From Bdellovibrio sp. (GTDB lineage Bacteria; Bdellovibrionota; Bdellovibrionia; Bdellovibrionales; Bdellovibrionaceae), in contig JBKCUU010000041.1 in NCBI GenBank assembly GCA_046318155.1, forward strand, positions 1 to 18,734: DNA of 18,734 bases, written 5' to 3'. Shown piece after piece: positions 1-15,930 of this stretch. Below the pieces are notes generated by a model that worked only from the letters and a program-made list of their open reading frames with translations, was not told the DNA's origin and did no database searches. The stretch's first letter is position 1. Each line of letters opens with the position of its first letter. A program made the translations under genes and the position numbers.

Positions 1-98
1 GCTTTAGCTTAAGACGGGCACGGCCATCCATGGCCTCGAGCCGCCTGAATACCGCATCCTGCGGCGGCGGAGGCCCATCTTAAGCTAAAGCAGGATTT
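1..98 (+). repeat. Palindromic structured element A (long stem plus branched core); probably truncated by the window start
   Basis: 1-19 gctttagcttaagacgggc is the reverse complement of 73-91 gcccatcttaagctaaagc (18/19). The interior holds hairpins ggcca-tcca-tggcc (22-35) and ccgc-atcct-gcgg (52-64), the latter inside ccgcc(41-45)/ggcgg(66-70). The core is homologous to the reverse complement of 1740-1794. Confidence 0.8.
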
Positions 99-233
99 GC
101 AGTTCTGAAAAGGGATTCCCGAAGTTCCCGTCGCGAACAAAACCGAGATGTCTCCCGGGCTTTGGCTTGACCTCATTTCCAGCACAGTTGGGTGCGTAGA
201 GAATTAGAGTGTTTCTTGAAACGCCGTGGAGGA

Positions 234-261
234 TTGACAGGATTTTTTAAAGTGGAATACT
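234..261 (+). promoter_or_regulatory. Putative sigma70 promoter for the lipoprotein triplet
   Basis: Perfect TTGACA at 234-239, 16 nt spacer, then AATACT (256-261) preceded by TG at 253-254 (extended -10-like), ~20 nt before the ORF start. Confidence 0.45.
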
Positions 262-281
262 GAAGGCGATTTTGAATTGGG

Positions 282-788
282 GTGAACTTGGCGAATTTTA
301 TTCGGGGCTTTGTTGTTTTGAGTTTGGCGGGATTGCTCTCGTCTTGCGCTTTTCTTCATCATTATCAGCTTGGGGATATTGATTCGCGCAATGAGAAACA
401 GGTTTGGATCCCGTTTGATATTAAGATGAGCGAAGTCGGCGTCAGTGCTGAAGAGATTGGGGGGATTGCTCGCGCGGCCCAAACTCGTGGCGGCGATGAT
501 GTTAGTAATGTGGCTGCCGTGGTTTCGCTCTTTCAGATGGGCCCGCGTACCGGCAATCCCGTTTACGATGCAAGATATGCCGAAAAATTGATCTATGAAA
601 TTTATCAAAAGTGTCCGAGTGGACGTATCACAGGTCTGACTTCGATTCGGGAGATGCGCAAGTACCCCGTGATCTCTGGTGAGATCGTCAAGGTCACAGG
701 CTTCTGCGCTAAGGACCGTGTTGCTCGCAAATCCACCTCTGATGACCCTCAAATAACTGAGGACGACGCCGTCCCGGGAGATATTTAA
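282..788 (+). CDS. Hypothetical lipoprotein (C-x30-C family, paralog 1)
   Basis: 168 aa ORF with GTG start (TTG at 288 is an alternative). Signal peptide with lipobox LSSC; motif KCPSGRITG...VTGFC. The stop overlaps the next start (TAATG). Confidence 0.85.
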   Translation: MNLANFIRGFVVLSLAGLLSSCAFLHHYQLGDIDSRNEKQVWIPFDIKMSEVGVSAEEIGGIARAAQTRGGDDVSNVAAVVSLFQMGPRTGNPVYDARYAEKLIYEIYQKCPSGRITGLTSIREMRKYPVISGEIVKVTGFCAKDRVARKSTSDDPQITEDDAVPGDI

Positions 789-1123
789 TGTTGAAGTTCT
801 GGTCCCTCCTTCTTGTTTTGCCCTTGCTCGCTGGATGCGCGTCTGTCAACTCGGTCTCGATGACAACGATCCCAAAAGATCGCAATCAAGTGGTGCGGGC
901 TGAGGTCAGCAAAACCATTTTTTTGGCCTTCAACTTTGATAACGATTTTGTCGACCCTTTGGTCGAAAAATTAAAAGTCCAATGCCCGCAAGGGATCGTC
1001 ACCGGAATTTTGACCAAAGATGAAGTGATCAGCTACGTCCTCGTCCACACCCGCCGTGTGGTGGCGACTGGATTCTGCGTTAGCGGTCATGGCACTCAAG
1101 CTTCGGCGACGTCGAGGAATTAA
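788..1123 (+). CDS. Hypothetical lipoprotein (C-x30-C family, paralog 2)
   Basis: 111 aa; MLKFWSLLLVLPLLAGC with canonical lipobox LAGC; motif QCPQGIVTG...ATGFC; coupled to both neighbours. Confidence 0.87.
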   Translation: MLKFWSLLLVLPLLAGCASVNSVSMTTIPKDRNQVVRAEVSKTIFLAFNFDNDFVDPLVEKLKVQCPQGIVTGILTKDEVISYVLVHTRRVVATGFCVSGHGTQASATSRN

Positions 1124-1441
1124 ATGAAACTGAGCCACTCGATCCTCCCGCTGCTGTTGTTTTCATTGGGATGCGCGCACTCGATTCACGAAGTGCACGT
1201 GTCTGATTTCAATCCACCAGCAAAAGTTCAAAACGGCGATATCATCAAAGCCTCGACCGAACAATTTGTCGTTCTGGGATTCGTGACCCAAACCGATTAC
1301 GTCGACCAAGCAAAAACCCAGTTGCTCGCGGCATGCCCAAAGGGCCAAATCACAGGAATCACAACCCAGTACTCAACAAGCCTGGGCTTCTTCTCGTGGA
1401 CCAACAAAATCCTCATGCAGGGCCTCTGCCTCGAAAACTAA
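1124..1441 (+). CDS. Hypothetical lipoprotein (C-x30-C family, paralog 3)
   Basis: 105 aa; MKLSHSILPLLLFSLGC lipobox; motif ACPKGQITG...MQGLC; ATG immediately follows the previous TAA. Confidence 0.87.
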   Translation: MKLSHSILPLLLFSLGCAHSIHEVHVSDFNPPAKVQNGDIIKASTEQFVVLGFVTQTDYVDQAKTQLLAACPKGQITGITTQYSTSLGFFSWTNKILMQGLCLEN

Positions 1442-1446
1442 AATCC

Positions 1447-1465
1447 CGCCCTGATCCTCAGGGCG
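1447..1465 (+). other. GC-rich hairpin just downstream of the lipoprotein operon (possible 3' stabiliser or weak terminator)
   Basis: cgccctga-tcc-tcagggcg, perfect 8 bp stem, 5 nt after the stop codon; no U-tract. Confidence 0.45.
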
Positions 1466-1698
1466 CCGACCACTGAAGCCATCCAGAACCGAACCCGGAG
1501 TCACCCCGCAAGCCGTGGTGACTCTGATCCATTCGAAACGACCTCGTTTTTAGCCTCCAAATGCAGGGCCGAAGTTTTTGGGTTCTGCCGCGGGGGTTCT
1601 TTGGTTCCTGCTGGGAGAGGGCTCTCGGTCTTATTTTCAGCACAGTCAGATCCAAGCGCCCAAGATCCTCCGAACCAGACAGAGATCGATTTCTCGAA

Positions 1699-1835
1699 GG
1701 TTCTGGGAGTCTAAATCCTAAACTCCCTCCACCAAGGGGCTCCGCCCCCGCCTGGACGGCGGTATTCTGGGCGGCGTGAGGGCTGGAGGCCCGTCCCCTT
1801 GGTGGAGGGAGTTTAGGATTTAGACTCCCAGAACC
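1699..1835 (-). repeat. Palindromic structured element B (perfect 41 bp inverted repeat plus branched core), inverted relative to element A
   Basis: 1699-1739 ggttctgggagtctaaatcctaaactccctccaccaagggg is the exact reverse complement of 1795-1835. The 55 nt interior, read on the minus strand, aligns with the element A core. Confidence 0.9.
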
Positions 1836-4541: not shown

Positions 4542-5388
4542 ATGAAAAACCTTTGTTTTCTTTTATTTGCGGGCATTGTGTTTCTTCAAACGGGCTGCGC
4601 GATGATCAAAAAACTCACCTGCAATGAAGGCGTCGCCACTCGCAATGCCGAGAGTGATGTGAAAAACGGCAGCACCGATCAGCCCGGCATTCGCGGCGGC
4701 GAATCTTGTGACGGGGAGTATGGGCGTTCGCAATTTGAAAGCGACTATCGACGAGCGTACGCCGATACGGTGAAGAAAACCCGCATCGCTGAAAACGCGG
4801 TCAAAGCAGAGGCGGCGGAAGGAGATGCGGGCGCCACCGTTAAGCCTCAATTCAAACAATTTAAGTCTTGCAAAAAATGGCCTCTTACAAATCTCTCGTA
4901 GCCAGTTATCAGCGTGAATATTCACGCACTCGTTGCTCCGAGAAGCGCGCGGTCCTTGCGGCCGAAGATCTCGCAGGCAAAATGGAAGCATCAAACTTTG
5001 AAGCCACTTTTGCTTCTTGTGAGTCTTCGCACAAATCTTTGCAAGCCGCTTATGACTCTGTCTGCAAAGCTAGGTATGGACAGGCCGCAAAAGAAAAAAC
5101 TGAAGAATTCGTGTGCAACACCGGGACCTCAAGTTTTCTCTTTCAGAACCGACCCTACACGGCTTCGTGCCGAATTTTATCAGGCAAGGGTCAGCTCCAA
5201 GTCACGGTTTCAAATCCCCATGCGGCTCAGGTTTTGCTACTTACTACGACAGGTCTTTTCAACGCATGATGGACGACACTTCGCAAGAGGCGGTTCTTCT
5301 CAATGATGGCAACGCCAAAACTTCTAATAAAATGACACTTCCTCGTGATGCTGAATTTTGCCGGGCCGAGTTCGCAACAGTTCAGTAA
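4542..5388 (+). pseudogene. Frameshifted Cys-repeat lipoprotein gene (three overlapping fragments)
   Basis: Fragment 1 (4542-4901) has lipobox-like QTGC. Coding continues in the -1 frame at the A6 run 4872-4877 (SCKK|MASYKSL...) and again in the -1 frame near 5225-5245 (YYDRSFQR...LPRDAEFCRAEF, stop 5388). Joined product is about 280 aa. Confidence 0.7.
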
Positions 5389-5460
5389 ATTCGAAAAAAG
5401 TTTAAGTTCGAGGGCTGGGCGAACTAAGAATAATCAGAAGCTAAAGGCATTCGAAGCTGC

Positions 5461-6060
5461 CTAATCCTGATCTTTTTCCTTTTCTTTTTTCTTTGCTTTG
5501 AGCTCCAGCCTACATGAGGCGACCTTTTCCTGCATGTCTTCAGTGCGAACTTCCAAGACCGCTTTGTACTCACGGTAGCGAACCAAGCGGTCGTTCAAAA
5601 ACTCTTCAGTCAGGCCGGCAATCTTGCCTTTTTCGTCGAGGCCCATCTGAACTTTATCGGTATCCTGAATGACGTACTCCCGTTTTTCAGCCCATTTCAG
5701 TTTGCCGTCCTCTAAAAGTGACAACTGCTCGCGGCAATCTTTAAGAACACCCCAGTAGCCACGATTGTCTAAATAACGGGGACCGCCATAAAGAGCCGAC
5801 TCCATTTCGTGGGTCTTTATCTGCAAATTTCGAAGCTCCTCCGCAATCAGGACTTTCTTTTGGTAAATCATGTTGCCGTCCTTCACGCCAATCGAGGAGC
5901 GGTCGTTAATCGCCTCAGACTTTTCGATCGAGGCGTCTAAATCCTTGGCTTTGTTGGGGTTTGAGGCGCAGGCACCTAGAGCAAGCGCGGCCAAAATCAT
6001 GGGGGCAAGGGCGAGAGAGGGGCAAAGCGAGCGGCAAAGCGAGCGGTGAGCGAGAGTCAT
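5461..6060 (-). CDS. Hypothetical lipoprotein with helical/coiled-coil character
   Basis: Start reassigned to ATG 6060 (GGAGG SD 6 nt upstream); lipobox LGAC followed by ASNPNKAK; 199 aa; charged helical C-terminal half. Confidence 0.85.
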   Translation of the reverse strand: MTLAHRSLCRSLCPSLALAPMILAALALGACASNPNKAKDLDASIEKSEAINDRSSIGVKDGNMIYQKKVLIAEELRNLQIKTHEMESALYGGPRYLDNRGYWGVLKDCREQLSLLEDGKLKWAEKREYVIQDTDKVQMGLDEKGKIAGLTEEFLNDRLVRYREYKAVLEVRTEDMQEKVASCRLELKAKKKEKEKDQD

Positions 6061-6248
6061 CTGAGTCCTCCGGGACTGTTTTTTGGACTGCTTTTGAATG
6101 CAGATTGATACTAGAGTACTGTTGAAGCAAAGCTCGGGCGGCTCGAATTGTTTCAATGAAACAGCGTTTCTTGCTGGGGCGTCTTTGTGGCTTTTTGCAC
6201 ATAGACCGAGAGCGTCAATTACACCCTTTCAAAAATGGGGCCGAGCCT

Positions 6249-14930: not shown

Positions 14931-15066
14931 CTATTTATTGGGAAATCCCCTCCGGGGCTTTCCGTAATCAAAGATGGCCGTTCGTGCTTCGCCCATCCTG
15001 GGCTCTATTTATTGCGAAATCCGCTTCGCGGCTTTCCATAATCAAAGATGACCTCTCGTGCTCCGC
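14931..15066. repeat. Imperfect tandem direct repeat, 2 x 62 bp with 74 bp period and internal hairpins
   Basis: 14931-14992 vs 15005-15066 are 53/62 identical; inner hairpins are cccc-tcc-gggg and ccgc-ttc-gcgg; the junction contains gccc-atcct-gggc. Confidence 0.9.
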
Positions 15067-15143
15067 GCCCCTCAAGTCGCTTTGGTGGGTCTTATTGACT
15101 AACGCATAAATAAAGGCGCATTGGTTTTGTCCTCGCTGGCTAC

Positions 15144-15220
15144 AAAATGGCGCACAGAGAAAAAGCTCCTCGACGTGGCTTTAGCCACGCCTCCGGGACT
15201 TTTTCTCTGTGCGCCATTTT
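15144..15220. repeat. Perfect 22 bp inverted repeat with nested hairpin (REP/MITE-like)
   Basis: aaaatggcgcacagagaaaaag (15144-15165) / ctttttctctgtgcgccatttt (15199-15220), with inner cgtggct-tt-agccacg. Confidence 0.88.
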
Positions 15221-15237
15221 TCGCGCAACAATTCCAT

Positions 15238-15307
15238 CGCCCACTGCTCCTTTGGTCACGAAAAGCCCCTAGGGAGCTTTTCCAAATAATTAATGGAGTG
15301 GTGGGCG
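15238..15307 (+). repeat. Long imperfect stem-loop
   Basis: cgcccactgctcc / ggagtggtgggcg (13 bp with 2 G-U pairs on the + strand) encloses tttg/caaa and gaaaagc...gcttttc. Confidence 0.65.
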
Positions 15308-15505: not shown

Positions 15506-15880
15506 ATGCCAACGATTAATCAGCTCATTAAAAAAGAGCGAGTGGTTCAAAAGAACCAAACTAAGTCACCCGCGTTGGAAGGCTGCCCTCAGAGACGAGG
15601 CGTCTGCACACGCGTTTACACGACAACTCCAAAGAAACCGAATTCGGCACTTCGTAAAGTCGCCAAAGTTCGTCTATCAAATGGTTTTGAAGTGATCTCT
15701 TACATCCCTGGCATCGGCCACAACCTCCAAGAACATAGCGTTGTTCTGATTCGCGGAGGCCGGGTTAAAGATCTTCCCGGCGTTCGTTACCATATCGTTC
15801 GTGGAGTTTTGGATTTGCAAGGTGTTAACGGACGTTTGCGTGCTCGTTCTAAATACGGCGCGAAACGACCTAAAAAATAA
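15506..15880 (+). CDS. rpsL: 30S ribosomal protein S12
   Basis: MPTINQL...[21 protein letters not shown]...[16 protein letters not shown] 15506 after AAGGAG; 124 aa. Confidence 0.99.
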
Positions 15881-15882
15881 AG

Positions 15883-15930
15883 TCACACCAAAGGTGTGAA
15901 AATAAGCTCACACCAAAGGTGTGAAAATAA
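15883..15930. repeat. Exact 23 bp direct repeat x2, each copy containing a palindrome
   Basis: tcacaccaaaggtgtgaaaataa at 15883-15905 and 15908-15930; each contains tcacacc-aaa-ggtgtga. Confidence 0.95.

Follow-up and report, generated by a model that had tools for sequence, protein, structure and literature searches.

The two branched palindromes, here elements A and B, that stand on either side of three predicted lipoprotein genes at the start of the window (the whole stretch of 18,734 nucleotides analysed, from a Bdellovibrio sp.) belong to a dispersed intergenic repeat of Bdellovibrio-type predators, of which that genome has nine copies in all. The repeat is probably a diverged offshoot of the TwoAYGGAY family (RF01731). 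In what follows, G000 is the genome that carries the window, the other G-numbers are other genomes, C-numbers are contigs and L-numbers are extracted loci.

Structure and folding strand of the repeat

The core of element A (20-72) is a three-way junction with two hairpins, and the census of stem mismatches described below assigns it to the minus strand, where its loops read AGGAU (56-60) and AUGGAU (26-31). The visible part of its left arm (1-19) is 95% complementary over 19 nt to positions 73-91 and is cut by the contig end, the window starting at the first base of contig C41. The preliminary description had predicted that this arm goes on with aaatcct; contig C4, which overlaps the window start and carries nusG just upstream, continues it exactly so, and with C4 included the right arm (73-115) is complementary to the left one at 42 of 43 bp. 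The core of element B (1740-1794) is assigned to the plus strand by the same census, with the loops UGGAC (1753-1757) and UGGAG (1784-1788); its left arm (1699-1739) and its right arm (1795-1835), upstream of rplK, are 41 nt long and 100% complementary (41/41 bp). The covariance model R1 scores element A 73.5 bits at 6-86 and element B 71.3 bits at 1726-1808. The folding z-scores of the two elements run from -5.1 to -12.9, with 0 of 200 shuffles equally stable on either strand, and both elements fold into the three-way junctions first proposed for them. The AGGATTT that had been pointed out in both right arms is indeed present in A and B, and none of the seven remaining copies of the genome has it in its arms.

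A profile search of G000 gave 10 hits, which make nine distinct copies with A and B included, the end of C82 and the start of C3 being counted as one because they look like a single copy. Their cores have a median identity of 83% and their arms of 27%. In the family as a whole, two hairpins form a conserved core of about 52-65 nt, and the stem beneath it, at least about 30 bp long, varies in sequence from copy to copy while staying paired and holds no conserved boxes. The uninterrupted stem has a median length of 38 bp, and of 78 dissimilar copies 76 have one of 30 bp or more; weaker pairing beyond it often extends to about 75 bp. A bulge of 7 nt interrupts the first arm, except in several subfamilies (the four-way variants), where a third hairpin takes its place; this extra hairpin ends in a C-AAA/GAA/GGA-G triloop in 20 of the 24 scored. 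In an alignment of 21 sequences, which includes kin and from which the structure itself was derived, 19 of 28 pairs show changes on both sides and the covariation score is 0.523, whereas shuffling gives 0.143 and sliding the partners no more than 0.165. It is therefore the structure rather than the sequence that is kept, as had been supposed from A and B alone. The loci L190 and L199 and a four-way subfamily (e.g. L118, L121) share a further conserved feature, an internal GCA/GGA loop placed 6-8 bp away from the junction, whose GGA lies on one arm or the other depending on the copy.

The mismatches that interrupt the stems are strongly asymmetric. Read on the strand with TCC loops, 102 copies, a set from which three partial hits were omitted, contain 93 A.C against 24 G.T and 147 C.T against 14 A.G mismatches. 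On the opposite strand, with GGA loops, the 81 arms that were left after the removal of similar arms contain 53 G.T against 2 A.C and 82 G.A against 3 C.T. This bias identifies the GGA strand as the one that is kept foldable, namely the minus strand for A and the plus strand for B, and it reverses the preliminary description, which had read the TCC-loop strand.

On the GGA strand, the second loop contains GGA in 106 of 111 cores, while the first is more permissive (GGA 85, CGA 22, TGA 4); at least one loop contains GGA in 110 of the 111, and the loop consensus is N-(G/C)-GA-N. Both loops are CGA in 6 of 34 further copies, including one that lies directly behind csrA (L307:1110-1190, on C15 of G038). 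The site A(N)GGA occurs in 93 of 109 cores and twice in only 37 of them. At least one strict AYGGAY is found in 29/109 cores, including element A, which has one, and not in element B.

Distribution of the repeat and its probable kinship with TwoAYGGAY

The covariance-model scan that had been recommended, run with R1, detects members of the family in 60 of the 151 Bdellovibrionaceae genomes searched, with 1 to 36 copies in each. The copy number ranges from none found up to 36, and subfamilies are specific to lineages. With R1 the element is seen in 29 of 32 genomes of genus g10 and in 0 of 33 of genus g3. Single genomes gave 36, 14 and 16-18 matches, and about 30 when a subfamily copy served as query. 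In a phylum sample searched with the same model, 10 of 151 genomes matched, three of them outside the Bdellovibrionaceae. A pattern scan of GTDB returned 40 matches in 38 loci, in which arms are present only in the 10 from Bdellovibrionaceae records (one of them cut by a contig end); the remaining 30, armless, were discarded as chance matches. Two exact patterns had no hit in viral contigs, and the arms, considered as guides, have no match longer than 16-17 nt elsewhere in G000. Replication-strand bias was not seen (19/33, 20/33 and 13/25, with the origin assumed at base 1). A literature search returned no description of the repeat in Bdellovibrio, and the available portion of PMC3627812 contains neither the word 'repeat' nor the word 'CsrA'.

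Rfam gives no match at E<=1 on the whole window, and no hit to A and B alone. On short loci, the GGA strand of the copy on C80 matches TwoAYGGAY at 36.8 bits, the best score in G000, for a gathering threshold of 43 bits. Matches of miRNA families to such loci were set aside, because they involve the long stem alone. One copy of G275, which belongs to another family of the phylum, passes RF01731 at 49.1 bits and is also matched by the R models. Of 12 sub-threshold RF01731 loci, 10 overlap a hit of R2, the second covariance model, on the opposite strand, which is the expected relation given that Rfam describes the GGA strand; one overlaps on the same strand and one is without an R2 hit. The preliminary description, in presenting the repeat as a possible undescribed structured RNA, had missed this resemblance, which lies on the other strand.

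The likeness to TwoAYGGAY extends to architecture and genomic behaviour. Two sequential hairpins with GGA-containing loops top a long basal stem whose sequence is free, a GAG-stem-GGA-stem-GWGU module is common to the family here and to the seed rows available, and the repeat is multi-copy, intergenic, variable in number and arranged in divergent doublets. In Pseudomonas, TwoAYGGAY likewise shows extreme copy-number variation, with doublets that are 68.4% divergent at a median of 249 bp, according to the available part of the 2026 preprint by Li et al. (10.64898/2026.09.22.753630). The same text describes an extension of the motif and upstream 5-mer arrays, the extension being largely confined to Pseudomonadota, and its main text, as far as available, is without mention of the phylum Bdellovibrionota. 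In our judgement, the repeat can be classed as working in the manner of TwoAYGGAY and is probably homologous to it. It is not, however, a formal member of that family, because AYGGAY occurs in both loops in only 4 of 109 cores and because none of the 151 Bdellovibrionaceae genomes holds a copy that reaches the gathering score. The 7-nt bulge or extra hairpin of the first arm is a further difference.

Many copies lie directly behind rplL, groEL, ssb, rpoN, aspS, nusG or a tRNA. The copy behind rplL is present, with compensated stems, in all 16 rplL-rpoB regions inspected (regions chosen for holding a hit), which suggests that selection maintains it at this site. Such locations could suggest host signals for RNA processing or termination behind highly expressed genes, the stem serving RNase III or 3' protection. 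We find this very unlikely: the sense RNA at these places is the TCC strand, which the mismatches disfavour, the rplL copy comes after an ordinary terminator-like hairpin, and most relatives are without the element at nusG-rplK. As to the rplL-rpoB junction itself, it holds one or two elements in genus g10 and none in the window, where several genes without assignment lie between rplL and rpoB (4542-6156).

Other repeats accompany the family. Between rpoC and rpsL, the window contains a different, MITE-like repeat of about 180 bp with conserved terminal inverted repeats (15093-15250), whose end motif has 34 matches in G000. Behind rpoC lies a 62-nt direct repeat, 85% identical (14931-14992 and 15005-15066), and between rpsL and rpsG a 25-nt tandem pair (15874-15923). 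A third repeat family of G000 consists of perfect palindromes and half copies, with 17 motif matches (C81:16774-16833, C42:1275-1328, C114:20524-20573). At L026:344-481 (G000:C5:37343-37480), directly behind a tRNA, there is a 44-bp stem whose branched tip differs; it may be more distantly related to the family and has no R-model match in the genome search. At L027 (G000:C104:5156-5290), a long stem with an unrelated tip has a tyrosine recombinase gene about 2 kb away.

Back-to-back pairs and the lipoprotein genes at the nusG-rplK junction

The inverted orientation of A and B, already noticed in the preliminary description, is not due to chance. Pairs of copies within 2 kb of each other are divergent (back to back) on the GGA strand in 28 of 28 cases, which represent about 16 distinct loci, nine of the pairs being rplL-rpoB orthologues and four ssb orthologues. 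The hit lists behind this count are incomplete for some genomes, and same-strand partial copies beside N gaps in G032 (L128, L148, L304) and an internal partial copy (L130) were omitted from it as probable assembly artefacts. The spacing is 213-502 bp in 23 of the 28 pairs; five enclose genes, which are the lipoprotein trio in one case, gene pairs resembling toxin-antitoxin systems in three (a naming by eye, on the basis of their translations) and an IS200-like gene in the last. Between tandem genes, as delimited by a simple gene caller and with orthologues included, 25 copies face one way and 27 the other.

The trio between A and B, outside the elements, is encoded on the plus strand. It consists of a predicted lipoprotein of 168 residues (282-788) and of two paralogous ones (27% identity) of 111 (788-1123) and 105 residues (1124-1441), none of which has a Pfam family; a likeness of the third to DUF6567/TRL-like clusters is a lead only. 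Upstream, a match to a sigma-70-like promoter (10 of 12 positions; 234-261, plus strand) is of a kind expected once by chance.

The preliminary description had suggested that A and B delimit a mobilisable unit, that is, that they are the ends of a composite mobile element which brought the trio into the nusG-rplK junction. Among 30 rplK loci, 25 of which have nusG within about 210 bp, the element and the trio occur together at this junction in G000 alone, and the cargo of the five gene-containing pairs is typical of mobile DNA. The trio is nevertheless free of nearby elements in 7 of the 7 other genomes where it was found, two of which hold at least 12 copies elsewhere, and most pairs are gene-free, their short spacing leaving little room for cargo. 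Furthermore, G001, a genome of the same genus, and G014 carry other inserts without any element at this junction, and the arm sequences of A and B are too different for a recent pair of ends. The junction is an insertion spot in this clade and pairing is a habit of the family; a transfer of the trio by A and B is possible yet unsupported, and we regard such a composite unit as unlikely.

Mobile DNA or CsrA-binding RNA: two possible readings

The model that we prefer, and to which we grant about an even chance of being right, is that the repeat is a non-autonomous mobile DNA which is predicted to fold on its GGA strand, the folded single strand being recognised by an enzyme encoded elsewhere. 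It retains the folded single-strand substrate of the preliminary description. A dimeric protein would read the two N-(G/C)-GA-N loops together with the junction, and new copies would be made in trans. The spacer between back-to-back copies would collect unrelated passenger genes, which may explain the presence of the lipoprotein trio between A and B. Some copies, such as those behind rplL, groEL and ssb, would have been retained over long periods and may since have taken on a function for the host.

We lean towards this DNA model rather than a CsrA-binding RNA on account of several observations: CGA loops are tolerated, no common promoter is seen, the preference for one folding strand appears with DNA energies, the triloops are of a DNA type, and copies between tandem genes face either way about equally often. 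Indeed, among 121 copies, which are not independent of one another, the GGA strand folds more stably than its complement in 92 with DNA energies and in only 68 with RNA energies. The AAA triloop of the four-way variants is of a kind that is more stable in DNA. According to the available part of PMC13037366, GNA mini-hairpins too are far more stable as DNA than as RNA. Against the model, no cognate enzyme was recognised among the 68 Y1 loci scanned and no clean insertion at three sites, the rplL copy has long been kept, GGA is near-universal in the second loop, and the G.U bias of the stems is also RNA-like. The three polymorphic sites show imprecise deletions or gene replacement, with no clean empty site or target duplication. 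Several copies of G014 (L133, L139, L143) have in common an inverted motif at their ends, about 75 bp away from the junction. One arm of L100, in G127 of another genus, finishes in a similar motif, and this copy occupies the place where relatives have a gene of about 1 kb.

The search for the enzyme bears on the more specific proposal of the preliminary description, attC- or REP-like substrates. The folding of the repeat, favoured on one strand, is reminiscent of integron attC sites, imperfect palindromes in which one strand is favoured for folding and in which structure is kept while sequence is free. It differs from them in its branched tip, in the absence of R/L boxes from the stem, and in having neither an integrase nor cassette arrays in direct orientation: no integron integrase scores over the cut-off in G000, a genome 95% complete (TIGR02249, 70.4 bits at best against 265). 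With the REPs or REPINs of RAYT transposases, as described in the part of the literature available, it has in common a non-autonomous, palindromic, intergenic and vertically inherited character and inverted pairs, while its conserved tip and variable stem are the reverse of REPINs. Nor is it tied to a RAYT. The RAYT-like Y1 gene of G000 (C86:35693-36471) lies between inverted copies of a different, ordinary REP family with 26 motif matches, many of them hairpin doublets. Of the 68 Y1-transposase loci, several cut by contig ends, a single one is flanked by elements, an IS200-like gene inside a divergent pair in G032 (L148:1501-2873, C50). This gene has two partial sister copies without a downstream element and 76%-identical homologues outside pairs, and is therefore likely cargo. 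A genome with 18 copies has no Pfam Y1 hit, yet two matches by protein query. That the elements are the REPs of a RAYT or the attC sites of an integron is accordingly hardly credible. A reverse transcriptase was also considered as carrier and rejected, none being found in 3 of 5 carrier genomes, G000 included.

A less probable alternative to the mobile DNA, though one with a real chance, is that the elements act as RNAs that bind CsrA. Their GGA strand would be copied into RNA, either from the spacer of a pair outwards or within the transcript of a neighbour, and would serve as a sponge; the long stem would protect the RNA and the two loops would fill both sites of the CsrA dimer. Sponges of the CsrB/RsmZ type, grouped in the Rfam clan CL00106, present GGA in hairpin loops, and Rfam places TwoAYGGAY in the same clan. 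Several loops of the family here match CAGGAUG or CAUGGAUG, the GGA in at least one loop of nearly every core and the frequent A(N)GGA sites described above suit such a role, and CsrA is encoded in 145 of the 151 genomes. A match to the CsrA site, or CsrA binding, has been proposed for TwoAYGGAY in RMfam (PMC4333381, available part), a proposal also cited in the accessible text of the 2026 preprint (10.64898/2026.09.22.753630), and the CsrA of B. bacteriovorus represses a target with a GGA loop in B. subtilis (PMC13443453, in the part available).

Other features fit such a sponge poorly. The elements offer only two sites on a duplex of 30-50 bp and exist in many copies, and most cores lack a second A(N)GGA site. 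Copies in which both loops are CGA include the very one behind csrA. Inspection by eye of the 165 nt that precede the junction on the GGA strand showed no common promoter-like motif. Genera in which the element was not found also have CsrA, and the copy number swings as it does in mobile DNA. In RNA-seq at the locus L186 of a relative (4 of 24 listed runs), one contig spans the element and three runs break inside or beside it, with no deep contig confined to it; these contigs are unstranded, and palindromes break contigs. Some copies could be of one kind and some of the other, and in its available text the Li et al. preprint leaves CsrA sponge, mobility or both open for TwoAYGGAY itself.

In conclusion, our observations extend the question to TwoAYGGAY at large. 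Could its elements be single-stranded DNA recombination sites with their own trans-acting enzyme, in which a branched GA-loop tip sits on a duplex ruler of about 38 bp and back-to-back pairs capture passenger genes and move them? We put this forward as a tentative and rather doubtful generalisation. Since the Rfam cut-off misses the Bdellovibrio branch, up to dozens of long palindromes per genome are left unannotated, and these often break assemblies, as at the start of the window and at the several copies found at contig ends. If the mobile DNA reading is true, the enzyme of a widespread repeat remains to be found. TwoAYGGAY has been a motif without function since its publication in 2010 by Weinberg et al. 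(PMC2864571, available part), and the Bdellovibrio branch offers natural variants which separate a sponge from a mobile DNA: switches between GGA and CGA loops, a clear folding strand, four-way forms whose triloops are of the DNA type, and the copies fixed behind rplL in cultured Bdellovibrio, an organism with an active CsrA.
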